Origin: Escherichia phage rV5_ev158
Strand: one strand, 5' to 3'
DNA length: 64,000 bases
Sequence record: LR694611
The first letter of the stretch is position 1. Each line of letters opens with the position of its first letter. Shown here in pieces: positions 1,429-41,522 of the stretch. The notes under the pieces were generated by a model that was given only the letters and a program-made list of their open reading frames with translations, was not told the origin of the DNA and searched no databases. The translations under genes were made by a program, and so were the position numbers.

Positions 1429-1983
1429 TTACTCCCCGCTGTCAATAGCAAGACTCATTGCAATACGGTATGCCTCTTCTAATGGTAAGAGTCTCCCCCA
1501 CACATCCCAACCGACATCAAACTGCCTGCCAAACAACTGCTGTGTGGTTCCGTGAGCATGACCGAACAGTTGGACCGATCCGTGAGGCTTTCTGTTCCAC
1601 TTTGCAAACTGGTAATGGCTCATACAGATCAAATTCTTGTTGTGGCGAAGCTCGTAATAATCTACAACCTCATGACCGAACTCTTTCATAATTCTGACAG
1701 TCGTCCTTGTGTCATGGTTACCACGAACAAGAATAATATGTCCGTTCAACATATTTAGAACATCTGGGAGCAATTTGTTAATATTCTTATCATTAGTGCA
1801 CGCAATATCTCCTAAGTGAAACACAGTGTCTGCAGGTGACACAACAGAGTTCCACTTGGTGATGATCCCCGCATTCATACTGTCAAGATTGTGATCATAC
1901 TGAGATCTGTGTTTTTGACATGAATCAAACTCCATGACCCGCTGGTGGAGAAAGTGTGTGTCGCTTGTTACAAAGTATTTCAT
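1429..1983 (-). CDS. calcineurin-like metallophosphoesterase (putative polynucleotide 3'-phosphatase)
   Basis: motifs SDTHF, HLGD, GNHD; start moved to internal ATG (MKYFVTSDTHF) with GAGGA RBS, in frame with ORF 1429..2088. Confidence 0.7.
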   Translation of the reverse strand: MKYFVTSDTHFLHQRVMEFDSCQKHRSQYDHNLDSMNAGIITKWNSVVSPADTVFHLGDIACTNDKNINKLLPDVLNMLNGHIILVRGNHDTRTTVRIMKEFGHEVVDYYELRHNKNLICMSHYQFAKWNRKPHGSVQLFGHAHGTTQQLFGRQFDVGWDVWGRLLPLEEAYRIAMSLAIDSGE

Positions 1984-1990
1984 ACATTCC

Positions 1991-2401
1991 TCATTTAAGT
2001 TTAATGCAGTTTTTAAGCTGGCGTTCCATACGATCCACAACCTTGTCTGGAACATCATGAATGCTTTTATTACCGTGGCGGTTTTCAACCACGATCACGG
2101 TATAACTATACCCATGACTGATTGCCATGTCAACATATTCCTGCACATGTTTTTCTTTTGTAAACGTATTACTTACCACGATACGGTCGTATCCCATACG
2201 CATCATATCTTCTACGTTATCTTTGCACCATTTTGCTGCGAGTGTTACTTTACTTGCATCCCAGTTGTAATTGCCGTCATCGTCATACCAGAACATGTCG
2301 TTCTCAAAATGTGGATACAGACCCTCTAAAGATAGCGCATTTGCCAGTGTTGATTTGCCAGACCCTGGTAGACCACGCACGATATATAGCATTTTAGACA
2401 T
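1991..2401 (-). CDS. P-loop polynucleotide kinase-like protein
   Basis: Walker A GLPGSGKST near N-terminus; start moved to ATG (MSKMLYIVRG) preceded by GGAGGG, in frame with ORF 1991..2557. Confidence 0.7.
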   Translation of the reverse strand: MSKMLYIVRGLPGSGKSTLANALSLEGLYPHFENDMFWYDDDGNYNWDASKVTLAAKWCKDNVEDMMRMGYDRIVVSNTFTKEKHVQEYVDMAISHGYSYTVIVVENRHGNKSIHDVPDKVVDRMERQLKNCIKLK

Positions 2402-2501
2402 AGTAACCCTCCGTTTTAATTTCAATGATAGTATACCTAACTGTTTTGTTAATTTCAAGTGTTGACACTGGGTTATTTGTGTGGCAGGATAAAGGGACAA
2501 A

Positions 2502-3437
2502 ATGACAAATGAGGAACGTATGATGAAGTATTTTAATGCAGACGACCTGGTTGACAAAGGTCTTGTAACCAGCAGATATTACCCAGATCTTGGGTTAAAG
2601 ATCTATAAATATGCCAGAAAAGTATTCTACAACAACTTATGGCATTTGTCTCCTCGATTACTGGAGTGCCGAGGCATTGTTGTCGGTAATGAAGGAAATG
2701 TTGTGGCATGGCCCTTCACAAAAGTGTTTAACTTGGGAGAAAACTCCACCAACCTGCCTGACAATAAGCTTGTGACGGCGGTAGAGAAAAAGAACGGATT
2801 CCTTGGTGTGGTGTCATCTCATAAAGGTGAACTATTGTTCTCAACAACCGGGTCTCTTGATTCCCCATATTGTAACCTTGCAAAGGAAACCATCCAGGAG
2901 CAATGCGGTAATTTAGATCTTATCAAGAAGGTTATGGGCAATGAAAACATGACATTCATGTTTGAAATTTGTCACCCTTCAGATCCGCATATTGTTCAGG
3001 AAGATCATGGCGCATATTTGATAGGTTGCAGATATAATGATTCTGGAATAATGCTACCAGAAGCCGCTTTAGATGGGATTGCCAAATACCTTGGTGCAAA
3101 ACGTCCTCACACTGTGCGTGAAATTCCGTTCAGCTATGCAAAAGAGTTAGCTGCAGAAACAAGAGGTGAAGGATATATGATTCGTAAGCCTTACTACCCT
3201 TATGATCTGCAGTTGAAGATCAAGTCTCCATACTATCTGGCACGAAAGGCCGTAATGAGGGGTAAAGCTTGGAAGATTTGGGATGATGATATCTTTAAAC
3301 GTGTTGACGAAGAGTTTTACGGCATGGTAAACTTCATTCGTAACAACTACACAGAGGATGTATGGAACTGCCTCCTGGAGCAGGAACGCCGTGAGATACT
3401 TGACTGCTATTTCCACAACGAGGACTATATGCAATGA
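2502..3437 (+). CDS. ATP-dependent RNA ligase-like nucleotidyltransferase
   Basis: ligase motifs I KKNGF (KxNG, no Arg), IV EGYMIRK, V LKIK; start may be the ATG ~18 nt downstream (MMKYF) with GAGGA RBS. Confidence 0.6.
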   Translation: MTNEERMMKYFNADDLVDKGLVTSRYYPDLGLKIYKYARKVFYNNLWHLSPRLLECRGIVVGNEGNVVAWPFTKVFNLGENSTNLPDNKLVTAVEKKNGFLGVVSSHKGELLFSTTGSLDSPYCNLAKETIQEQCGNLDLIKKVMGNENMTFMFEICHPSDPHIVQEDHGAYLIGCRYNDSGIMLPEAALDGIAKYLGAKRPHTVREIPFSYAKELAAETRGEGYMIRKPYYPYDLQLKIKSPYYLARKAVMRGKAWKIWDDDIFKRVDEEFYGMVNFIRNNYTEDVWNCLLEQERREILDCYFHNEDYMQ

Positions 3438-3784
3438 AGAAGTTGATTGTGTGGCTGGATGACTTGAGAGATCCGTCAAATTACGGGCTCCAAGACGCTG
3501 TTTGGCTAAAGAATTCCTCCGAGTTTATAGATTTTATTAACGATAATAGAAAGCTCTACAGACGCGTTTCTGAGTGGCACATGGACAACGACCTTGGAGA
3601 GTTGTTCGAAGGGTACGATTGCCTATCTATGTTGGAGGAAAAATTTGTATTTGGTAAGCCCCCTGTAGTTGACAACGTGAAGATTTTCGTGCATACTTCT
3701 AACCCATCAGCGGCTCGTAAATTCATGCTTGCAGCTGACTCGTTTAAAAAGTTTGGAATAGAGATTAAACAAAACATCTACTGA
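3434..3784 (+). CDS. hypothetical protein
   Basis: ATGA overlap with upstream gene; co-directional packed ORF. Confidence 0.5.
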   Translation: MKKLIVWLDDLRDPSNYGLQDAVWLKNSSEFIDFINDNRKLYRRVSEWHMDNDLGELFEGYDCLSMLEEKFVFGKPPVVDNVKIFVHTSNPSAARKFMLAADSFKKFGIEIKQNIY

Positions 3785-3792
3785 GGACACTT

Positions 3793-4554
3793 ATGCGACG
3801 ACTGATTATTATCTCCGGTGCTGGTTTGAGCGCTGAATCTGGTATTCCCACTTTCCGATCTGGTAGCACTGCAATGTGGGAGAATTTCAGCATCGATGAG
3901 GTGTGCAACATCCACACCTTTGCCAAGAACTACTACAAGGTGCATGACTTTTACAATGCACGTCGTGTAGCTCTAGGCGGTGTTGAGCCTAACCTTGCAC
4001 ATCTTCGGATCGCTGAGTGGTATTCCCGCTGGTCTGGTCGTGTGATCAACCTTACCACCAATGTAGATGATTTGCTGGAGCGTGCTGGTGTAAAACATGA
4101 AGATATTTTACATGTTCACGGGTATTTGCCAGAAATAGTCTATGAGGACGATGAAGGAAGTGACGTCATTAAGGACATTGGATACTCTGAGGTAGATGCA
4201 GGAAAGTATACCTGGGTTAAACCTAATGTGGTGTTCTTCGGAGAAGTAGCTCCGAAGTATACAGACATGTATGACCTGTTGACTTCTCTTACAAGCAATG
4301 ATATGGTTATCCTTGTAGGGTGTTCCAACACAGTTATCAATTTTAACTGGGAGCTATTCCCTGCCTGCAATAAGGGCACCAAACTGCTGATCGTTAACAA
4401 ATACGACTCACAGCATCTAGAGGAGAATGGCATTTCACGTAGTGATATTTACCAGTACGAGGATCGCGGCATCCCGGTTTGGTTTAACGGGGCGGTTGAC
4501 GCTTTCTCTGATAAAACATTCATTGAGACCGTAGAAAACTTTATGGAACTTTAA
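3793..4554 (+). CDS. Sir2-family (sirtuin-like) NAD-dependent enzyme
   Basis: GAGLSAESGIPTFR, TTNVDDLLERAG, HVHG and PNVVFFGE motifs typical of sirtuins; no zinc CxxC pair seen. Confidence 0.8.
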   Translation: MRRLIIISGAGLSAESGIPTFRSGSTAMWENFSIDEVCNIHTFAKNYYKVHDFYNARRVALGGVEPNLAHLRIAEWYSRWSGRVINLTTNVDDLLERAGVKHEDILHVHGYLPEIVYEDDEGSDVIKDIGYSEVDAGKYTWVKPNVVFFGEVAPKYTDMYDLLTSLTSNDMVILVGCSNTVINFNWELFPACNKGTKLLIVNKYDSQHLEENGISRSDIYQYEDRGIPVWFNGAVDAFSDKTFIETVENFMEL

Positions 4555-4567
4555 AAGGAGACCTTTA

Positions 4568-5281
4568 ATGCTGAATACTAAACTGATCGACAACCTGGAA
4601 AAACTGTCTCAGCCTGAAAACTACCTTTGGTCTGCCAACTGGGTGGAAAACTGGAACCGTGTGGCAGCTAAAGTGAAAAAATCATACACACCATTCGAAT
4701 TACAGCTTAGCTTCATTGAGGAAGAGTTCAATGAGGTTTTGGAAGAGCTGGAGAAAGGTGATGGTGGAGATCACCTGCTAAAAGAGGCCTGCGATCTTCA
4801 CGTTGTCACAAGTTATGCCGCTTATCTTGTTAATGATAATCACGAAAAGTGGTCAAACCTGTTTGATAATCCACGAGGTCTTAAGTTCAAGATCGGTGAG
4901 TTCTATGATACACTGATCGCTGCGAAAAACACATCCAAGCAAAGAGCGTCAGCTTACCGCTTAGCGGAGTTGTCAACAGCTTTGCTGTTCCAGCTTCGCG
5001 GCGATGTGTGTGGTATGATGCGGAAGGTTCTCAAATCTAATGACAGCAAGTTTGCACGGATCAACCATCTACGATATTCTCACGGTGCCAGTGCAGATAT
5101 GTCTACTGAATTGCTCATAGAGTTAGAGATTGAAGATCTTGAGCGTCGTTTTGGTGGTCGCTACGAAGGTTTCGTTGCTAAAGAGGAGTTCTACAACGGT
5201 AATAAAGTTATTATATTCCTTGACAGTAAAGGTAAGATTATGAAGCCTTCGAGCTTCAAGGATGTAACAGAGTATATTTAA
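4568..5281 (+). CDS. MazG-like nucleoside triphosphate pyrophosphohydrolase (putative)
   Basis: EEEFNEVLEELEKGD...LLKEACDLHVV fits the MazG/HisE EExxE...D acidic helix pattern; judged by eye. Confidence 0.45.
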   Translation: MLNTKLIDNLEKLSQPENYLWSANWVENWNRVAAKVKKSYTPFELQLSFIEEEFNEVLEELEKGDGGDHLLKEACDLHVVTSYAAYLVNDNHEKWSNLFDNPRGLKFKIGEFYDTLIAAKNTSKQRASAYRLAELSTALLFQLRGDVCGMMRKVLKSNDSKFARINHLRYSHGASADMSTELLIELEIEDLERRFGGRYEGFVAKEEFYNGNKVIIFLDSKGKIMKPSSFKDVTEYI

Positions 5282-5287
5282 CAACAT

Positions 5288-5311
5288 AGCCGGGATTACC
5301 CGGCTTTACTT
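5288..5311 (+). terminator. hairpin AGCCGGG-ATTA-CCCGGCT after the MazG-like gene (weak T-run)
   Basis: inverted repeat read from sequence. Confidence 0.35.
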
Positions 5312-5343
5312 ATTATGGAAAGTATGCAGTGAGGTAGTTAGTT

Positions 5344-5652
5344 ATGTACAAGCATTCCAGAGATCTTGAAAAAGATGCTGTGTTTGGCGACCAGATGAAG
5401 GAGCTGATCAAACTTATAGGTAGAATGGAAGATAAGTTTGACACTAAAATCTACATCGATAGCAAGATCTTCAACCACAAAATATGGACAAATGTGTGTG
5501 TTGGGCTACATGGTGATAAAGATATTGTAAATTTGGTTGTAATAAAGTTCATAGTGTGGCAGAATAGGACTATACGTTATTCCGATCCACACTTACTTGT
5601 TTATCCTATAAAAGACCTACTACAGAAGGAGGACTGCAATGCCGTTATTTAA
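5344..5652 (+). CDS. hypothetical protein
   Basis: ORF in plus-strand gene chain. Confidence 0.45.
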   Translation: MYKHSRDLEKDAVFGDQMKELIKLIGRMEDKFDTKIYIDSKIFNHKIWTNVCVGLHGDKDIVNLVVIKFIVWQNRTIRYSDPHLLVYPIKDLLQKEDCNAVI

Positions 5653-5908
5653 TCTTGCTAAACCTGTAGAAGCACACCAGTTTGATGGAAGCTCTTCATC
5701 AGTATCTGATCTGCAACGGTGGATTGATACAGGTGTGTTTACATCGTCACCTGTTCGGACCAGAGATATTCGTCGCATGTGTGAGCTTGTTGAGCCGTTT
5801 GGCAACTTGGTTTTGTACCAGGGAGATTGGTTAGTTGACTTTATGGGAGACTGGTTGGTAATGAGTAAAGAAGAGATGTTTAAAATTTTTAAGGAAGAGG
5901 CCGAGTAA
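5639..5908 (+). CDS. hypothetical protein
   Basis: ORF in plus-strand gene chain; ATGA-type coupling to the ligase gene. Confidence 0.45.
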   Translation: MPLFNLAKPVEAHQFDGSSSSVSDLQRWIDTGVFTSSPVRTRDIRRMCELVEPFGNLVLYQGDWLVDFMGDWLVMSKEEMFKIFKEEAE

Positions 5909-7191
5909 TGCATCAAATCAAAACAACACTGTACGCACTGAACAAAGATGGCAGCTACCAACAGTGGAAAGTATTCACTGATGGCGAAAAGGTTATCGTA
6001 GAGTTTGGCAAGCTTGACGGTAAATTGCAGTACAAAGAGACGGTATGTACACCTAAAAACGTAGGTCGTGCCAACGAGACTACAGCTGAGCAACAGGCCG
6101 AGCTTGAGGCTATCAGCAAGTGGGAAAAACAAGTCCGTCTGGGGTATGTTGAAAACATGGAAGATTGCGAGCAGGGTGTTGATCTTTTACCTATGCTGGT
6201 GCATGACTACCTGAAGCGTGGCAAGGCACTTAAATTACCTTGCTGGATCTTGCGTAAGTTAGATGGCCTTCGTCTGCTTGTTGTTTTCCAAAATGGTGAG
6301 CCTAAATTTATTTCCCGTGGTAATAAGTCCTACCCTATTCAAGGAAAGCTTTTAGAGCAACTTCGTTCTTTCCATTCTACCACTGGGATTAAACAACTTG
6401 ATGGGGAACTATACATTCATGGTCTTCCTTTGCAGAAAATAGTGTCTCTTGCTAAACGGTGGCGCACACAGGAAGAGATTCAGGCCGAGATCGATAAAGA
6501 CTATGAGGCAGATAAAAAACGCCGTCATGCAGCAATTAAGGCAGGCTTATCAACATACAAAAACTTCAACAAGGTAGATATTCCTGTCGATGTTGAGCCT
6601 GTTCGTGATGATTTGCGTTACGGTGGATACTGTAGCTACGATCTGGAGTATCACATTTTTGATATTCCTAGCGACAAGGTGTGGTGGGATCCAGAAACAG
6701 AGTCTGGACGCTGCAAGGATCTTATGGATGCAGAGGATACCGTTACCACTCTGCTGCTTGATCATATCAAGGTTGTTGACGCAGAGCTTGCGTACACAGT
6801 TGATCATTGCGAAGAATCTGTTGGTATATTCATGTCCGAAGGATATGAAGGTACTATCATGCGTAATTTCTGCGGTAAATATGAGTATGGTCAGCGAACA
6901 TCTGAAGCATTGAAATGGAAAAAGTTCAACGACGCAGAGGTGAAAGTTATTGACGTTGAGAAAGATAAGAATGATGAAGGTGTTCTTATCTGTGTTGACA
7001 AGGAAGGTGTTGTTGTTAAAATGAAGATGAAAGGCACGCACGAGGAGCGTAGCTATGACAGGATGCAGGAAATGATCGGCAAGTTTGTCACCTTCAAATA
7101 TCAAGCAAGGACAGAAGACAACAACTACCAATTCCCTGTCGGTATCTGCGTCCGAAATGTTAACCCAGATACTTGGGAGGTTCTGGAATGA
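5908..7191 (+). CDS. ATP-dependent DNA ligase
   Basis: motif I KLDGLR (KxDGxR), motif IV EGTIMR, motif V KWKKF. Confidence 0.8.
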   Translation: MHQIKTTLYALNKDGSYQQWKVFTDGEKVIVEFGKLDGKLQYKETVCTPKNVGRANETTAEQQAELEAISKWEKQVRLGYVENMEDCEQGVDLLPMLVHDYLKRGKALKLPCWILRKLDGLRLLVVFQNGEPKFISRGNKSYPIQGKLLEQLRSFHSTTGIKQLDGELYIHGLPLQKIVSLAKRWRTQEEIQAEIDKDYEADKKRRHAAIKAGLSTYKNFNKVDIPVDVEPVRDDLRYGGYCSYDLEYHIFDIPSDKVWWDPETESGRCKDLMDAEDTVTTLLLDHIKVVDAELAYTVDHCEESVGIFMSEGYEGTIMRNFCGKYEYGQRTSEALKWKKFNDAEVKVIDVEKDKNDEGVLICVDKEGVVVKMKMKGTHEERSYDRMQEMIGKFVTFKYQARTEDNNYQFPVGICVRNVNPDTWEVLE

Positions 7192-7315
7192 TGTAGGCTG
7201 GTTTAGTAGGTAACGGTAGCCAATTGAATGATGGTTTTTCAATTGGCACCTACATAACCACACTATGCAGTGTTGTTGATCGGGTTAGTTATGAGCAAAC
7301 TGGAGAGTATGAAAA

Positions 7316-7804
7316 ATGAAACTTGATAAAAATGTTCAACGAAAAGCTTTCTTGGATATGATCGCATATTCGGAAGGAACAGATAATGGTAGACAACCTA
7401 CCAAGGATCGGGGGTACGATGTCATAGTCGGCGGCAAGCTGTTCAGCGATTACAGCAAGCATCCAGGTGTTTACGTTAAGCTAAATGCTAAACTTACCTC
7501 CTCCGCTGCTGGTCGTTACCAGGTTTTGGAGAAGTTTGCTAAACACTACATGAAACAGTTAGGATTACCAGATTTTGGCCCTGCCAGTCAGGACAAGATT
7601 GCGTTGCAACTGATCCGTGAGTGCAAGGCTCTCGCCGACATTGATGAAGGGCGTATTCATCAGGCCATTTATAAATGCCGCAGCCGCTGGGCAAGCTTCC
7701 CACCACCGCCAGGGGCTGGAAAGCTGTACAATCAGCGAGCAGAAAGTATAGACAAGATGCTGGAGATCTTTAAGAAGGCAGGTGGAGTTGTTACAGATGA
7801 GTAA
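7316..7804 (+). CDS. endolysin, phage lambda R-type lytic transglycosylase
   Basis: QRKAFLDMIAYSEGTDNGRQ...GYDVIVGG...AGRYQ...AGG closely follows lambda R as recalled. Confidence 0.9.
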   Translation: MKLDKNVQRKAFLDMIAYSEGTDNGRQPTKDRGYDVIVGGKLFSDYSKHPGVYVKLNAKLTSSAAGRYQVLEKFAKHYMKQLGLPDFGPASQDKIALQLIRECKALADIDEGRIHQAIYKCRSRWASFPPPPGAGKLYNQRAESIDKMLEIFKKAGGVVTDE

Positions 7805-8480
7805 CGGGATTGACTGGTGGAGTGTCTTTAGATACGATACAGGCACTGGAAGGTTGTTTTGGAAGTCCCCGCCAAAAAACAAACCTCAACTGATGGGAAA
7901 GGAGGCTGGATGTACTAACATGGACGGGTACAGGGATATAATCTATCGCGGCGTGCATTACTACAGGCATAGATTGGTGTGGGAGATGCATTATGGACCA
8001 ATTCCAGAAGGGTACGAAGTTGATCACATAAAGCCACTTTTCTATTCCGATGGTGTTGCTGATGACAGGATAGAAAACCTACAACTGTTAACACCAGAAG
8101 AAAACGCAAAAAAGGCGGCAGATGACGGATGCCTGGCACGCAAGATACCTAAATCTAACACTGGACACTTGGGTGTATATTTTCATGCTAGAACTGGAAG
8201 GTATGCTGCTTTTGGTAAGGTAGGTCATTACTATAAGAAAGACCTAGGAGAATACGATACCTTAGAAGAGGCCCTTGCTGCTCAAAAGTCTTTTGAAAGT
8301 GGCACGTTTGTCAGGGAATATCGTGGACAGCCTTTAGGGAGGGATAAATCTAGAGGTGTCAGATTTGAAGCAGATAGGGGCAAATGGAAAGTAACTTTCA
8401 GAGGAAAAACGCTAGGCAGGTTTGACACCAAAGAGTCTGCTGAAGCGTGTTACGCAAAGGCTCTTGCTGAAAGATTGTAA
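7797..8480 (+). CDS. HNH homing endonuclease
   Basis: HRLVWEMHYGPIPEGYEVDHIKP...NLQLLTPEEN HNH motif; start set at ATG overlapping the endolysin stop. Confidence 0.8.
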   Translation: MSNGIDWWSVFRYDTGTGRLFWKSPPKNKPQLMGKEAGCTNMDGYRDIIYRGVHYYRHRLVWEMHYGPIPEGYEVDHIKPLFYSDGVADDRIENLQLLTPEENAKKAADDGCLARKIPKSNTGHLGVYFHARTGRYAAFGKVGHYYKKDLGEYDTLEEALAAQKSFESGTFVREYRGQPLGRDKSRGVRFEADRGKWKVTFRGKTLGRFDTKESAEACYAKALAERL

Positions 8481-8548
8481 CAGTATCATTGACATGACCA
8501 CACGGACGTGGTATTGTTACCTCATAAAATGTTAGGGAGGGTTTAACC

Positions 8549-8755
8549 ATGAAAGATTTTATGTTGGCAATTTTGTTCATGGTAGCATGTCTGTCCTGTG
8601 GTGTCGTGTTTGCAGGTGAAACAGCGTATCTTGTCGATGTATATCGGGACAATGGTAAACGTATTTGCCTTTATGAGACAAGTCAAGGTGAGCTCTACGA
8701 GCTTGTGAAACAAGGTGAGGCAGGTTCCTGCCCTCGCACCCATTTCTTTGAATGA
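8549..8755 (+). CDS. small protein with N-terminal hydrophobic signal-like segment
   Basis: MKDFMLAILFMVACLSCGVVFA hydrophobic N-terminus; promoter-like TTGACA upstream. Confidence 0.45.
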   Translation: MKDFMLAILFMVACLSCGVVFAGETAYLVDVYRDNGKRICLYETSQGELYELVKQGEAGSCPRTHFFE

Positions 8756-8783
8756 GGGAGAACACGTGGAAGACGGACGTTTA

Positions 8784-9230
8784 ATGAAGTCTGAACGCAG
8801 GCTTATTGTGCAACTGATCCCAGAAACAGCTTGGTATAATAACCTCCGAAACGCTGTGAAGAAGAGTGAGTGGGATAAGATACGTAAGAAGTGCTATAGA
8901 GAAGCCAACTACACTTGTGAGGTGTGCGGCGGTAAAGGCAGCAAACACCCAGTGGAGTGTCATGAACTTTACACTTTCGAAGAGGGAGTGATCCGGCTTG
9001 TCGGACTGATAGCACTGTGCCCGGATTGTCACACATCGGTGCATCCTGGGTTAGCAAATATCCGTGGAAAGTATGCTCAGGCAGTTAATCAGTTGGCTAA
9101 GGTGAATAAGATCACCAAGAGTATGGCAGAGGCGTATTACCGAGACTGCTTTGCAGAGTGGCGTGAGCTTAGTAAAGTTCCAGAATGGAAGACTGACTTT
9201 TCGTGGATAGAGGGTTACCTTGATGGCTAA
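8784..9230 (+). CDS. hypothetical Cys/His-rich protein (possible zinc-binding)
   Basis: CEVCGG...CHELY...CPDCH; start moved to ATG 8784 to avoid overlap with upstream gene. Confidence 0.45.
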   Translation: MKSERRLIVQLIPETAWYNNLRNAVKKSEWDKIRKKCYREANYTCEVCGGKGSKHPVECHELYTFEEGVIRLVGLIALCPDCHTSVHPGLANIRGKYAQAVNQLAKVNKITKSMAEAYYRDCFAEWRELSKVPEWKTDFSWIEGYLDG

Positions 9231-37880: not shown

Positions 37881-38118
37881 CTTAAATGCTGGAGACCATG
37901 TTGTTGTCAAATGCATCGGAGATTATCTTGGATTCACAATCGGCAATACTTACGAGGCGGTAGTGGCGAAGGTTTACCATGATAAAGTCCTCAGTCTTGT
38001 ATTTGACTGCGATGATGATGGGGATGACCGATACGTCTGTGAGGTGCTGGCACGAGACGATAGTGAAGACCAGAAATTCCTGGTTATTGAACTGAACGGT
38101 ATTTTTGTAGAACGTTAA
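37867..38118 (+). CDS. hypothetical protein
   Basis: ATG (MTKIDLNAG) after AAGGAG RBS, in frame with ORF 37801..38118. Confidence 0.45.
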   Translation: MTKIDLNAGDHVVVKCIGDYLGFTIGNTYEAVVAKVYHDKVLSLVFDCDDDGDDRYVCEVLARDDSEDQKFLVIELNGIFVER

Positions 38119-38146
38119 TTTAAAACAACATAAGGAGACTCTTACT

Positions 38147-38452
38147 ATGGCTAAATCTAAAGTTGAACTGTTCACCTCTCTTCCTTCTGACACTGCAGAG
38201 CGTGATCGCCTTCGCAAAACAATCGAAGAACTGGTAGAACTCCAACTTCAGATTAAAGATCTGAAAGATGCCATTAAGGATATCATTCTCGTTGAGAAGC
38301 AGGATCACCTGTATTCTCCTAAATTCATCAAATCTCTGGTGGCTACCGAGTTCGATATTCGCTATGAGGCTGAAAAACGTCGCGCTAAAATCGAAGAAGA
38401 GGTTGAGCACATGTCTGAGGCAGACATTCTGTTCAAACGCTCTGTAGAATAA
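38147..38452 (+). CDS. hypothetical protein (predicted helical, charged)
   Basis: AGGAG RBS before ATG. Confidence 0.5.
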   Translation: MAKSKVELFTSLPSDTAERDRLRKTIEELVELQLQIKDLKDAIKDIILVEKQDHLYSPKFIKSLVATEFDIRYEAEKRRAKIEEEVEHMSEADILFKRSVE

Positions 38453-38458
38453 TGACAA

Positions 38459-38486
38459 AGAGGGGGGCTTGGGCCCCTCTTTTTAC
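38459..38486 (+). terminator. intrinsic terminator, GC-rich hairpin AGAGGGG...CCCCTCT plus TTTTT
   Basis: read from sequence after 38452 stop. Confidence 0.6.
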
Positions 38487-38507
38487 TATCTATGAAGGAG
38501 ATTTGAG

Positions 38508-38834
38508 ATGGGTATACCGATTACTGTAAAAGAGCTAAATGAACGTGATGCAGGTGGTCTATGGCCTGCACGAAAAATCCGCTGCGTCTATATGAAAGAG
38601 AATCTTGAACATCTTGATCAACAGATAAAGGTCGGCGATATTTTCGAGGTCTTCTATTCCAATCGGCGCAACTGGGAAACCATTCAGCCTTCTGGTTTTG
38701 TTCTTGCCAAACTTGACACTGGAGAAGTGATTATCCCTGGGTTGGATATTGTCTTCGAAATTATCCAAGAGTGGGATCCGGATAAGATTAGATACGAAGA
38801 ATTATTCGGTAAAGGTATTATCAAACCTGTGTGA
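38508..38834 (+). CDS. hypothetical protein
   Basis: AGGAG RBS before ATG. Confidence 0.5.
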   Translation: MGIPITVKELNERDAGGLWPARKIRCVYMKENLEHLDQQIKVGDIFEVFYSNRRNWETIQPSGFVLAKLDTGEVIIPGLDIVFEIIQEWDPDKIRYEELFGKGIIKPV

Positions 38835-39142
38835 GGTGGATTATGTCTACAAAGGCGGCTAAATACTCCTATATGCCATCAACCTCTGCAGAGGTAGACT
38901 TTAGTTTCGATGTGTTTCCACTGTTTGAGGTGATTCTGGCATACCCAACAATACTATCTACTCCTGAATCACTTGTACCTGTTAAGTTGCAGAACGCTAT
39001 GCATTCTATGCACTACAACAACAAATGTAGGCACAGATGGTGTCAGGACGAGGAAAAAGATTTGGATAGTTTGAGGGATTTTGACAGTCACCTTTTGACA
39101 CCTTTCAGCTACTCCAACCTTGATAAGCCCTCATGGGTATAG
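38831..39142 (+). CDS. hypothetical protein
   Basis: ATGA coupling with upstream gene. Confidence 0.45.
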   Translation: MRWIMSTKAAKYSYMPSTSAEVDFSFDVFPLFEVILAYPTILSTPESLVPVKLQNAMHSMHYNNKCRHRWCQDEEKDLDSLRDFDSHLLTPFSYSNLDKPSWV

Positions 39143-39166
39143 CAAAATATCAAATTTAAGACACCT

Positions 39167-39193
39167 AGGACGCTCTGTGGCGTCCTTTTCTTT
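39167..39193 (+). terminator. intrinsic terminator AGGACGC-TCTGTG-GCGTCCT plus TTTCTTT
   Basis: read from sequence. Confidence 0.6.
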
Positions 39194-39355
39194 ATCTGGT
39201 GCACGATTGCATACCTTGGACAGATAATCTCGTTACAGAGCGTTTAAGAGCTTTCTACAAACAAGTCTCTCTTTCGAGCGTAGCGAGAACGCACGTCCGT
39301 TTTGACCCAAATCACCATACGCTCGGATTTTAACCAAACCCTCGCGGCGTTGCTG

Positions 39356-39384
39356 TTGACACATTACCGCTCCCGTGATAGTAT
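39356..39384 (+). promoter_or_regulatory. sigma70-type promoter TTGACA-N17-TAGTAT
   Basis: read from sequence. Confidence 0.55.
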
Positions 39385-39404
39385 CCACACACAGTTTGGA
39401 GAAT

Positions 39405-39506
39405 ATGGAATACACAATGAGAACATTGTCTGAAGTTTTAGTGGTGATCCTGATGATCATTACTTCCATAGCGGCTGTTGCCGGAATACTCACGGGTGGA
39501 ACATGA
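39405..39506 (+). CDS. small hydrophobic peptide (33 aa)
   Basis: MEYTMRTLSEVLVVILMIITSIAAVAGILTGGT; stop overlaps ATG of next ORF; below ORF-track cutoff. Confidence 0.35.
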   Translation: MEYTMRTLSEVLVVILMIITSIAAVAGILTGGT

Positions 39507-39715
39507 TCAACACACATGCATCTGAAGAGACATCCGAAGGAGTGACCATATGTCCCTTGGATGAGCCAGTTAAAGAGGAAAACTTAGATTCTGAGGACTC
39601 TTCATCTTCGTCCCAGACAGATCCTGAGGCTGATGACCTGACGTGGGAGGACATCGTAGATATCTGGTTCTCTATTATGCCTGAGCACGAAGAGTTCAGA
39701 GGTGGTAGACTATGA
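39503..39715 (+). CDS. small very acidic protein
   Basis: Asp/Glu/Ser-rich ORF coupled to upstream peptide. Confidence 0.4.
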   Translation: MINTHASEETSEGVTICPLDEPVKEENLDSEDSSSSSQTDPEADDLTWEDIVDIWFSIMPEHEEFRGGRL

Positions 39716-39836
39716 AGCACCGAGCCCACACAGGTTCCTCATGCTAAAGCATGGCCTGAAGAGGCAAACGTGTATAATTCTTGTGCATTGGAACGTATAA
39801 AACCCTGTTCACACTCTCATTCCCAGAGGAGATTTT

Positions 39837-40052
39837 ATGAAGATAGAGATATTTGGTGGAGCTGACAACACTCGTGGCCTGATTTACCTTGAATTCGATG
39901 AATCATACCTGCCAGAGGTGTTAAATATAGACTCTGTTGCTGAGGCTTTGGGAGTAAACCCTAAAGAACTCCACTCTTGTGCTGAGATCGATGGTTGGGA
40001 AGAGACCATGAACATTGATTTCAGTGAAGTAGAGGATGAACCGCTAGACTGA
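39837..40052 (+). CDS. small acidic protein (MKIEIFGG N-terminus); last plus-strand gene
   Basis: GAGGAG RBS; acidic tail EVEDEPLD. Confidence 0.45.
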   Translation: MKIEIFGGADNTRGLIYLEFDESYLPEVLNIDSVAEALGVNPKELHSCAEIDGWEETMNIDFSEVEDEPLD

Positions 40053-40748
40053 CACACAATCAGCTGCCCGGCTAAAGTGCTGGAAGCGCACCTATAACAC
40101 ATCTTTCAACTAAATTTCCTACCACCACAATCACTTACCTACCACACATGACTGTTTGCTTGTTTAGTGAGCAGTCATGCCTTGACATTCTTGCCTATCC
40201 TGATAAAATTAAGTTCTTCTCTTTTCTTTTACCGAGTAATTCGGGTTTTCTGTTCTCTTCGGTTTGAAGGGGTATGGAGATACACCTGAGTGAACAGGGT
40301 GAACAACCGAACCATTGGCTATGGCATTAGCATGGCGAAGCGGACGGGTGACGAAAGAGGGGCCGGAGGACACCAGTCACTGCCATATGATATATGGGTG
40401 ATAACCTGAAGAGTCTGAATAAGTGTTTAAGTACCAGTCAGAGGAAAAGGTGAATGGTAGCCGAAGGGGGATGGGGGGTTTCTTGTATCTTTAATTTGTA
40501 TATTATGTATACACTTGTAAACCAATCTCATCTGAATCTGTTTACCACACAAAGCGGATAGAGACAAATATCACCTATTAAACTTGAATTATTTATAGAA
40601 AATACCACAACACCACTTAAGTCTTTGATTTTACACACAAATCCTACAGATATTCAACCTCCATATTTAACATACTTGTAACATATTCCATACTCTACCT
40701 GTCTGATCAATTTCCCCAACTACATTCTCATATTTTCCCTGTCTGTAC

Positions 40749-40946
40749 TACCCCTGCCCCGCCGGGAGTCCCGTCATATCTGGCTTTCCAGCAAATATCA
40801 CACCCACAAATATCATTGCCTGAAGAGGGTTTCATCCCATAATACCTGCCTTACCTGAAGAGCGCTTCATACACCACGTAAATTTTTTAATTGACCTCCC
40901 CCTGCCCCGCCGGAGAGGTTGGCTTTTCCCACACAGACCTGAAGAG
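40749..40946. repeat. imperfect direct repeats, each starting CCCCTGCCCCGCCGG and ending CCTGAAGAG
   Basis: 9-mer CCTGAAGAG occurs five times between ~39755 and ~40946. Confidence 0.6.
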
Positions 40947-41522
40947 TCAGCCAGAAATATCTGAACAGGCCCAATTCTACCACGATTTTGACCTGACCTA
41001 CAGGGAGGCCCGAAGGGTCTAGCTTTCAGCTAGAGTCCTTGCAGGACCTACAGGAGCGCTGCCAGGCGGACGGAATGGGAATACTTCTCATTCTTATAAC
41101 AATTCTCAAATATCGAGACAGTGAGAGAAATTAATAGGCCAGGCCGTTCACACAGTGGCACAACATTTGCAACCTATTTTGGGTGGATGAATGAGAATAC
41201 CTATCATTGTGAGAACTGTTATCATTACGGGCAATTTAACATAATACCCATTATGCGCACCACCGGCGATACATACAGGGATTGATAACATGGGTTACTG
41301 TTTACGCACATAACAATTATATTTCTTACTATTTGTGTGGGATATAGTTAGCAGCCGATAGATTAGATATTAACCTGCAGACTTCTGACCGTCCAGACGT
41401 CTAAACGCCCACACACCAAGGATTATACATACACTCCTGAATGTAAACAGGGCCGCAAAAATGCTACCATACAAGCTTGTAAATTTTTCATGCAGCACTT
41501 GACAAAGAGGAGAAAAACTTGT

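Follow-up and report, generated by a model that had tools for sequence, protein, structure and literature searches.

A sirtuin gene in the RNA ligase operon of an rV5-like Vequintavirus and its predicted part in RNA repair

We have analysed a group of phage genes that includes a gene for a Sir2-family enzyme (sirtuin), located in a 64,000-nt stretch of Escherichia phage rV5_ev158 (sequence record LR694611; the whole stretch is called the window). An earlier note, made from the sequence, had pointed to three plus-strand genes at 3434–5281, encoding a sirtuin, a MazG-like pyrophosphohydrolase and a 116-aa protein, next to RNA repair genes. We observed the three genes where they had been placed (open reading frames, ORFs, 3434–3784, 3793–4554 and 4568–5281), and the neighbouring repair genes were confirmed as those of an Rnl1-type RNA ligase, an AAA_33/polynucleotide kinase (PNK)-like kinase and a calcineurin-like phosphoesterase. 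The three genes are the 3′ part of the ligase operon inside a six-gene cluster (1429–5281), not a separate module.

This cluster is already described in silico. Iyer, Burroughs, Anantharaman and Aravind described sirtuin-centred phage RNA-repair neighbourhoods in 2022 (Viruses 14:1977, section 3.7.3, PMC9503650), with Escherichia phage V5 and Proteus phage Mydo as prototypes of the type 2 neighbourhood. Members of the type 2 set are a sirtuin, a T4-like RNA ligase, cREC, a nucleotide kinase and a MazG pyrophosphatase, joined in some cases by a calcineurin-like phosphoesterase (PMC9503650); all six of these genes are present at 1429–5281, with no difference of substance. In the published reading the three genes of the earlier note provide extra end-healing and clean-up steps of RNA repair, the sirtuin being predicted to strip RNA 2′-phosphates like KptA/Tpt1 and the accompanying enzymes to open the cyclic phosphate or to process ADP-ribose>P (PMC9503650). 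The RNA 2′-phosphotransferase proposal belongs to Iyer et al. 2022; what is added here is where the operon begins and ends, which residues are conserved and how frequently the linkage is broken. The observation of the earlier note was confirmed and its interpretation partly supported; the feature exists, is usual in this phage group and has already been interpreted in the literature.

Judging by sequence identity, the window is from an rV5-like Vequintavirus: the queried 3-kb stretch around the sirtuin gene matches Escherichia phage rV5_ev168 at 100% identity and dozens of rV5-like Vequintavirus genomes at 96–99%. The repair-cluster genes carry annotations in >100 GenBank records of this group, where they are labelled RNA ligase, Sir2-like/NAD-dependent deacylase and sometimes nucleotide pyrophosphohydrolase.

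Organization of the six-gene cluster

The first gene of the operon encodes an Rnl1-type (T4 RnlA family) ATP-dependent RNA ligase (2502–3437, plus strand). It is followed on the same strand by the genes for the 116-aa cREC domain protein (3434–3784), a class III (CobB/SIRT5-like) sirtuin of 253 aa (3793–4554) and a MazG/HisE/dimeric-dUTPase-like protein of 237 aa (4568–5281). The ligase stop (3437) and the cREC start (3434) overlap as ATGA, and the intergenic gaps are 8 nt between cREC and sirtuin and 13 nt between sirtuin and MazG-like gene. A GC-rich hairpin (5288–5305; 7-bp stem with 6 GC pairs, 4-nt loop) lies 7 nt past the MazG-like stop; it is the sole strong terminator-like site within 2400–6500, and phages EdH4 and HdK5 carry an annotated ‘terminator’ feature in the corresponding stretch. 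This hairpin is the probable end of the ligase–cREC–sirtuin–MazG transcription unit. Given the ATGA overlap, the short gaps and the hairpin after the MazG-like gene, the three genes are the distal part of the ligase operon; they do not form a small module of their own, as had been proposed earlier.

The two other genes of the cluster run leftward and diverge from the ligase operon at a common 103-bp spacer (2399–2501). They encode a P-loop polynucleotide-kinase-like protein (1991–2398, minus strand; ∼135 aa from the MSKMLYIV start) and a calcineurin-like metallophosphoesterase (1429–1983, minus strand; 184 aa from an internal ATG, MKYFVTSDTHF). The spacer contains leftward promoter-like sites, i.e. 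sigma-70-like minus-strand matches at 2458–2430 and 2452–2425 (10/12 positions; consensus matches only). A search for a plus-strand sigma-70 promoter of the ligase operon gave TTGACA at 2462–2467 only, with no convincing −10 element. All six cluster proteins retain the active-site motifs of their families.

The sirtuin

The identification of a Sir2-family enzyme was borne out. The protein matched Pfam SIR2 (PF02146) over profile positions 1–178 of 180 with E-value 5.5e-27 and 95.3 bits (cut-off 24), and PHROG 2162 ‘Sir2’ with E-value 3e-109. Residue conservation was determined from an alignment of the 32-sequence phage clade. In this alignment the motifs G9-A10-G11-x-S13..S16-G17..F21-R22, T89-N90-V91-D92, H109-G110 and F148-F149-G150-E151, which include the NAD-binding signatures, are invariant or at least 90% conserved, with F21, R22, Y54, R57, N90, D92 and H109 invariant. 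The catalytic histidine, on which the earlier note had made its identification depend, is present: H109 aligns with the catalytic His of Escherichia coli CobB. The Y54-x-x-R57 acyl-carboxylate motif characteristic of class III is likewise invariant in the clade.

The closest solved relatives by sequence were E. coli CobB (1s5p, E-value 4e-21) and SIRT5; the top Foldseek matches of the AF2 model (pLDDT 90.4, with three confident strands in residues 110–146) were CobB (CobB-peptide complexes), Sir2Af1 and SIRT5. The NCBIfam CobB/deacylase models matched at E-value 1e-35, with scores below the CobB cut-offs (102.7 versus 320 bits for the equivalog model NF040867; 122.4 versus 243 bits for the subfamily model NF001753); as these scores are far under the cut-offs, the phage sirtuins form a distinct clade. 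With E. coli CobB and human SIRT5, its nearest kin in sequence and fold, the phage protein has in common the GAGxS..SGIxxFR, YxxR, TxNxD, HG and FGE motifs. It differs from them in reaching about half of the equivalog cut-off, in being restricted to phages, in its genomic context and in two structural features. The four zinc-ribbon cysteines are missing, those of CobB aligning to Y, E, G and K of the phage sirtuin; the H109–K143 segment contains no cysteine in the query and no conserved cysteine in the clade. The strand after GxS is altered as well, with the substrate-strand motif GTSxxVxP replaced by GCSNxVINF. By its sequence, then, we characterize the protein as a sirtuin of the CobB/SIRT5 class III type that has all catalytic residues and no zinc-binding cysteines.

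The earlier note took NAD-depleting defence effectors as its frame, and this frame does not suit a protein whose nearest kin are CobB, Sir2Af1 and SIRT5. A search with the PADLOC defence models (E-value ≤0.01) left sirtuin, cREC and MazG-like protein all unmatched, and therefore the sirtuin is not of the ThsA, DSR or SIR2-HerA kind. It shares the SIR2 superfamily fold and the use of NAD+ with the defence SIR2 NADases (ThsA, DSR1/2, SIR2-HerA, SIR2-pAgo); unlike them, it is unmatched in PADLOC, stands alone with no sensor or partner domain and is encoded by a lytic phage. From the class-M sirtuins, which Rack et al. in 2015 reportedly described as ADP-ribosylating, it differs by the invariant His109. 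The ART-fold PTS_2-RNA domain (Tpt1/KptA) was matched by none of the six cluster proteins in Pfam or NCBIfam; the sirtuin is likened to Tpt1/KptA by functional analogy only, not by family membership.

The cREC protein

The 116-aa ORF, called uncharacterized in the earlier note, belongs to a described family: it matched Pfam cREC_REC (PF20274, ‘cyclic-phosphate processing receiver domain’) with E-value 3e-15 and 57.1 bits (cut-off 27) and PHROG 1479 with E-value 8e-35. We collected 55 stand-alone cREC homologues, nearly all with PF20274. In the family alignment D51, D53, H87, S89, N90, P91 and K96 are invariant, and D9 and D10 are nearly so. The family was defined in a 2021 jumbo-phage paper by the Aravind group, where it was first proposed to process cyclic ADPr plus RNA cyclic phosphates (PMC7824862); it was called ‘experimentally uncharacterized’ in PMC9503650, its cyclic-phosphate phosphodiesterase activity being a prediction.

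The connection of cREC with tRNA and RNA ligase is robust and independent of the sirtuin. A homologue with 34% identity (5989–6345 of locus L082) is situated amid the >20-gene tRNA array of the T5-like Providencia phage vB_PreS_PR1, with neither sirtuin nor ligase alongside. In Phapecoctavirus anhysbys the cREC cluster sits just past the tRNA array.

An Rnl–cREC fusion in Phapecoctavirus, suspected from annotation, was rejected, the gene being a mislabelled stand-alone cREC: in Phapecoctavirus anhysbys (6992–7348 of locus L080) and several relatives a stand-alone cREC is labelled ‘putative RNA ligase and tail attachment protein’. Similarly, some rV5-like records label the MazG-like gene ‘putative Sir2-like protein’. 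Both kinds of label look like annotation carry-over from adjoining genes. Small ORFs upstream of the T5-like sirtuin were considered as cREC and rejected by Pfam and BLAST.

The MazG-like protein

The 237-aa protein matched PHROG 671 ‘nucleotide pyrophosphohydrolase’ with E-value 6e-22, while its match to Pfam PRA-PH stayed under the threshold (13.7 versus 21.3 bits; E-value 0.089). A PDB sequence search with the single protein gave no match, and PDB profile searches with the family gave marginal HisE and MazG matches only (E-values 0.01–0.8). The family is small: an exhaustive profile search among 1.84 billion proteins yielded 163 representatives at E-value ≤1e-3. We aligned 63 family members to determine conservation; PRA-PH was matched by 43 of them and MazG by 14, and E53, D76, N158, K161, K223 and K226 are invariant, with E52 and E56 nearly so. 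Given these family matches and the conserved acidic residues, the MazG-type assignment made earlier is right at the superfamily level.

The protein has a helical-bundle fold and shares with the dimeric dUTPases, MazG and HisE a four-helix core with EExxE and ExxD metal-binding helices. It differs from them in an extra small C-terminal beta element (hairpin) bearing an invariant GKxxKP motif, and in belonging to a small phage-centred family; identity to solved superfamily members is 12–17%. We assign the protein to the all-alpha MazG/HisE/dimeric-dUTPase superfamily, as a putative pyrophosphohydrolase.

The ligase, kinase and phosphoesterase

The ligase matched Pfam RNA_lig_T4_1 (PF09511) with E-value 6e-15 and PHROG 562 with E-value 1e-66; its match to NCBIfam TIGR02308 (E-value 4e-10) was far under the equivalog cut-off. 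Motif I reads EKKNG in the translation. The kinase matched Pfam AAA_33 (E-value 3e-10), PHROG 2071 (E-value 1e-58) and PHROG 505 ‘polynucleotide kinase’ (E-value 1e-9); it has the Walker A motif GLPGSGKST and no HAD phosphatase domain. The kinase gene is annotated as ‘polynucleotide kinase’ in phage MaxBurger (Bas54), and the P-loop protein is a candidate RNA 5′-OH kinase. PDB sequence searches gave no match for the ligase or for the kinase.

The phosphoesterase matched Pfam Metallophos and Metallophos_2 (E-values 4–5e-6) and PHROG 547 ‘phosphoesterase’ (E-value 5e-52), with Aquifex aq_1665 (1xm7, E-value 7e-11) as the top PDB sequence match. The DxH, GD, GNHD and GHxH motifs are seen in its translation. 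The protein is a candidate RNA-end 2′,3′-cyclic phosphodiesterase or 3′-phosphatase.

Distribution in phage genomes

A tblastn search of 50,697 phage records gave 1009 with a member of the sirtuin clade, 356 with cREC and 301 with the MazG-like protein. A sample of 78 sirtuin loci with ∼10-kb flanks was then analysed, the ORFs being searched with iterated profiles of the window proteins; genes within 5 kb of the sirtuin gene were counted as nearby. Sirtuin, cREC and MazG-like genes were all nearby in eight of the 78 loci, every one of Vequintavirinae type, and a calcineurin-like phosphoesterase gene was nearby in 15. About a dozen loci, from PVP-SE1, from phages of Klebsiella, Cronobacter and Erwinia and from related myoviruses, with sirtuin identity down to ∼45–55%, have kept the gene order phosphoesterase–ligase–cREC–kinase–sirtuin–DNA ligase–..–MazG-like or its rV5 variant.

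The third published configuration is that of T5-like phages (SP15), with sirtuin and SAK-HAD (PMC9503650). We observed it in 30 of the 78 loci, where the same sirtuin clade adjoins a HAD_SAK_2 ‘Swiss-army-knife RNA repair’ phosphatase and no cREC, MazG-like gene or ligase is near the sirtuin. The tie of the sirtuin to RNA-end enzymes therefore recurs in two unrelated phage families and is not universal. The full gene set is conserved in Vequintavirinae and kin, and co-occurrence overall is partial; the MazG-like gene tracks the ligase/DNA-ligase block more than it tracks the sirtuin. Consequently, the expectation of the earlier note that the three genes go together in related phages held for the eight Vequintavirinae-type loci and failed for the 30 T5-like loci and for Phapecoctavirus.

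A Pfam scan of sirtuin neighbours in Stephanstirmvirinae-like, Klebsiella T5-like and jumbo-phage loci gave uninformative or unrelated families (DUFs, methylase, gyrase B, SpoVR, resolvase, UvdE). Our locus sample did not reproduce the configuration described in the literature for jumbo phages (2H, Nudix-cREC, PIN).

Search for tRNA genes within the window found none. MaxBurger, which is 99% identical, has a six-tRNA array (Pro, Ile, Thr, Lys, Tyr, Arg; 422–1234 of locus L081) ∼3.5 kb beyond the phosphoesterase gene, at a place corresponding to just left of window position 1; several of these tRNAs are classic anticodon-nuclease targets. Genes of NAD salvage are also found in some relatives: in PVP-SE1 (1–1476 of locus L003) genes for Nampt (nicotinamide phosphoribosyltransferase) and PRPP synthetase are ∼5 kb upstream of the cluster, and in an IMG/VR contig (8057–9493 of locus L062) a NAMPT gene is immediately upstream of the sirtuin gene. 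Such neighbours fit an enzyme releasing nicotinamide.

Comparison with known RNA-repair systems

The closest parallel is the fungal and plant pair Trl1 and Tpt1/KptA. Both systems contain an Rnl1-family ligase domain (PF09511), a P-loop 5′-kinase, a metal-independent opener of the cyclic phosphate and an NAD+-consuming enzyme, and by this analogy both would yield nicotinamide and ADP-ribose>P. Trl1 combines an Rnl1-family ligase, a P-loop kinase and a 2H cyclic phosphodiesterase, whereas the phage parts are separate proteins; moreover, the predicted phage opener is cREC, with a receiver-like fold, instead of 2H, and the NAD enzyme is a sirtuin with a Rossmann fold instead of the ART-fold Tpt1.

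The T4 Pnkp and Rnl1 proteins, which counter the PrrC anticodon nuclease, are likewise a phage kinase and an Rnl1-type ligase encoded near a tRNA array, presumably for the same purpose. However, T4 Pnkp has its own HAD 3′-phosphatase and needs no NAD, while the rV5-like kinase has no HAD domain, and the rV5-like cluster adds four enzymes (phosphoesterase, cREC, sirtuin and MazG-like protein).

Proposed mechanism and alternatives

What the genes encode, that their active-site residues are intact, how the operon is built and which neighbourhoods are conserved were observed directly. On these observations we place a reading in which every biochemical step is inferred, above all the RNA 2′-phosphotransferase activity of the sirtuin: the six genes would form a repair system for RNA (tRNA) breaks, in which the sirtuin removes a residual 2′-phosphate and cREC with the MazG-like protein clears ADP-ribose>P. 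We give it a chance a little short of even. Host metal-independent anticodon nucleases would leave 2′,3′-cyclic-phosphate and 5′-OH ends. The P-loop kinase would phosphorylate the 5′-OH, cREC and/or the calcineurin-like phosphoesterase would open the cyclic phosphate and the Rnl1-type ligase would seal the break. The sirtuin would then spend NAD+ to remove the leftover 2′-phosphate (or a terminal 2′/3′-phosphate): a phosphate oxygen would attack C1″ of NAD+ with release of nicotinamide, making the sirtuin a non-homologous analogue of Tpt1/KptA. The resulting ADP-ribose>P would be disposed of by cREC and the MazG-like pyrophosphatase, a role that Nudix may fill in other phages.

Sirtuin deacylation follows the same two-step logic as Tpt1, with a His as general base. 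In Tpt1, the 2′-phosphate attacks C1″ of NAD+ and O2″ transesterification follows (PMC6097658, PMC6573784, PMC11417386). Since the two chemistries mirror each other and the general-base His is retained, RNA chemistry of the sirtuin is plausible. Some Tpt1 enzymes also take off terminal 2′/3′-phosphates (PMC6573784), and therefore a healing role of the sirtuin before ligation is equally possible.

A stronger claim would extend this reading to the whole phage sirtuin clade, which would act on RNA as a Rossmann-fold, His-dependent 2′-phosphotransferase evolved from a CobB-like deacylase and replacing Tpt1. In the rV5-like phages, healing, sealing and dephosphorylation would accordingly form a yeast-like pathway split among kinase, cREC, Rnl1 and sirtuin, and cREC and the MazG-like protein would be dedicated to the removal of ADP-ribose>P. 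We hold this claim tentatively, at chances well below even. One could speculate further that the sirtuin and the MazG-like protein strip NAD caps from RNA 5′ ends, giving ligatable 5′-phosphates.

Several points weigh against the repair reading. At the chemical level, the nearest kin of the phage sirtuin are bona fide protein deacylases, and the phage clade keeps Y54-x-x-R57. The calcineurin-like phosphoesterase of Clostridium thermocellum Pnkp heals the 3′ end to 2′,3′-OH; by analogy, the rV5-like phosphoesterase alone could do the same, leaving no 2′-phosphate, and T4 Rnl1 has no 2′-phosphate requirement. The MazG-like protein is closest to dimeric dUTPases. On the genomic side, 32 of the 78 sirtuin loci have no recognizable RNA-end gene within 5 kb, and the neighbours sampled for jumbo-phage sirtuins are unrelated to RNA repair. 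The Phapecoctavirus anhysbys cluster consists of cREC, phosphoesterase, ligase, kinase, DNA ligase and MazG-like genes with no sirtuin, the sirtuin gene of Phapecoctavirus-related Stephanstirmvirinae genomes being ∼30 kb from the MazG-like gene, and in relatives the MazG-like gene follows DNA ligase rather than the sirtuin. Shared order among related myoviruses may reflect descent rather than selection. Finally, on phage sirtuins, cREC and rV5 Sir2 the searchable literature offers comparative genomics by the Aravind group (PMC9503650, PMC7824862) and no experiments.

A different role of the sirtuin would be that of a CobB-like NAD-dependent lysine deacylase (deacetylase/desuccinylase) remodelling host or phage proteins early in infection. 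Its targets could be translation or RNA-metabolism enzymes, for instance, or the co-encoded repair enzymes, and its place in the operon would mean co-regulation or a neighbouring protein substrate. Such a role would agree with the closest matches in sequence and fold and with the NCBIfam matches given above, with the invariance in the clade of the catalytic His, the FGE loop and the Y54/R57 pair, which binds succinyl/malonyl carboxylates, and with the many sirtuin loci that have no RNA-repair neighbour. Yet the clade is distinct, reaching 122 of 243 bits against CobB, has lost the zinc-ribbon cysteines throughout and carries GCSNxVINF in place of GTSxxVxP; the host already has CobB, and the sirtuin is found beside RNA-end phosphatases in two unrelated phage families. 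We therefore regard the deacylase role as unlikely, if by no means negligible. For the MazG-like gene, the resemblance to dimeric dUTPases would fit a house-cleaning enzyme, a dNTP pyrophosphatase of the dUTPase type in the service of phage DNA replication, whose gene would be merely adjacent to the sirtuin gene, a possibility to which we grant a chance of about a third. The fold, however, does not reveal substrate specificity. Besides, the gene lies inside the ligase–cREC–sirtuin unit, 13 nt past the sirtuin gene and with the terminator after it, it always accompanies the Rnl/cREC cluster in the genomes that have it, and in jumbo-phage versions a Nudix pyrophosphatase is fused to cREC (PMC9503650).

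The earlier note also left room for a counter-defensive role, in which the sirtuin, cREC and MazG-like protein would destroy or divert immune messengers (cADPR isomers, cyclic oligonucleotides, alarmones). In its favour, cREC was originally proposed for cyclic ADPr too (PMC7824862), MazG-family enzymes hydrolyse nucleotides, and a pairing of SIR2 with an NTP pyrophosphatase is known from the defence system Kongming (PMC13454610); there, however, KomB–KomC includes a HAM1-type pyrophosphatase, while the rV5-like one is MazG-type. We consider this role very improbable. None of the three proteins matches PADLOC, an NAD+-consuming sirtuin would worsen rather than relieve NAD-depletion defences, phages are known to answer NAD depletion by the NARP1–3 synthesis pathways, with unrelated proteins (NARP3 is made of unrelated T5-like genes), and the operon partners are RNA-end enzymes. 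Thus, of the proposal that the genes act on NAD or nucleotide-derived signals, the part on NAD stays plausible, while we found nothing that points to counter-defence against Thoeris, DSR or CBASS signals.

Other observations

Between the terminator and the DNA ligase gene there are two small conserved ORFs (5344–5652, PHROG 7684; 5639–5908, PHROG 14585); they recur in Vequintavirinae-type loci, their position not being constant. The ORF scan also gave two unannotated ORFs between the endolysin and 5′-exonuclease genes. One (7782–8480) reads by eye as an HNH/AP2-type homing-endonuclease-like protein, and the other (8715–9230) appears to have a zinc-ribbon CxxC...CxxC pattern. As a shorter homing-endonuclease gene occupies the matching place in MaxBurger, the 7782–9230 region is a variable slot for mobile elements. 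At window ∼38000–41000 the GC skew flips its sign (+0.18 to −0.09) and the gene orientation switches too; the MaxBurger counterpart (2.5 kb) has no annotated gene, and the repeats found are short and weak only.

Some 18–25 records with MG0656xx accessions (e.g. A116, A140, A12a, D1) are titled ‘Campylobacter phage’, with C. jejuni as the stated host. In the cluster genes they are 92–97% identical to E. coli rV5-like phages, and their host labels look doubtful.

Implications

The phage group is well sampled, and the locus has been both annotated and interpreted by computation in it; it is of value as a target ready for experiments, for instance in the BASEL phage Bas54, and not as a discovery. 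The interest that remains is in the predicted RNA-directed sirtuin. If the prediction is true, nucleic-acid phosphate would be a new class of substrate for sirtuins, and Tpt1 would gain a non-homologous analogue. Common coliphages (rV5-like, T5-like and kin; ∼1000 GenBank records) would then be spending NAD+ to undo the cleavage of tRNA by defence nucleases, which would have a bearing on phage host range and on NAD-centred immunity.

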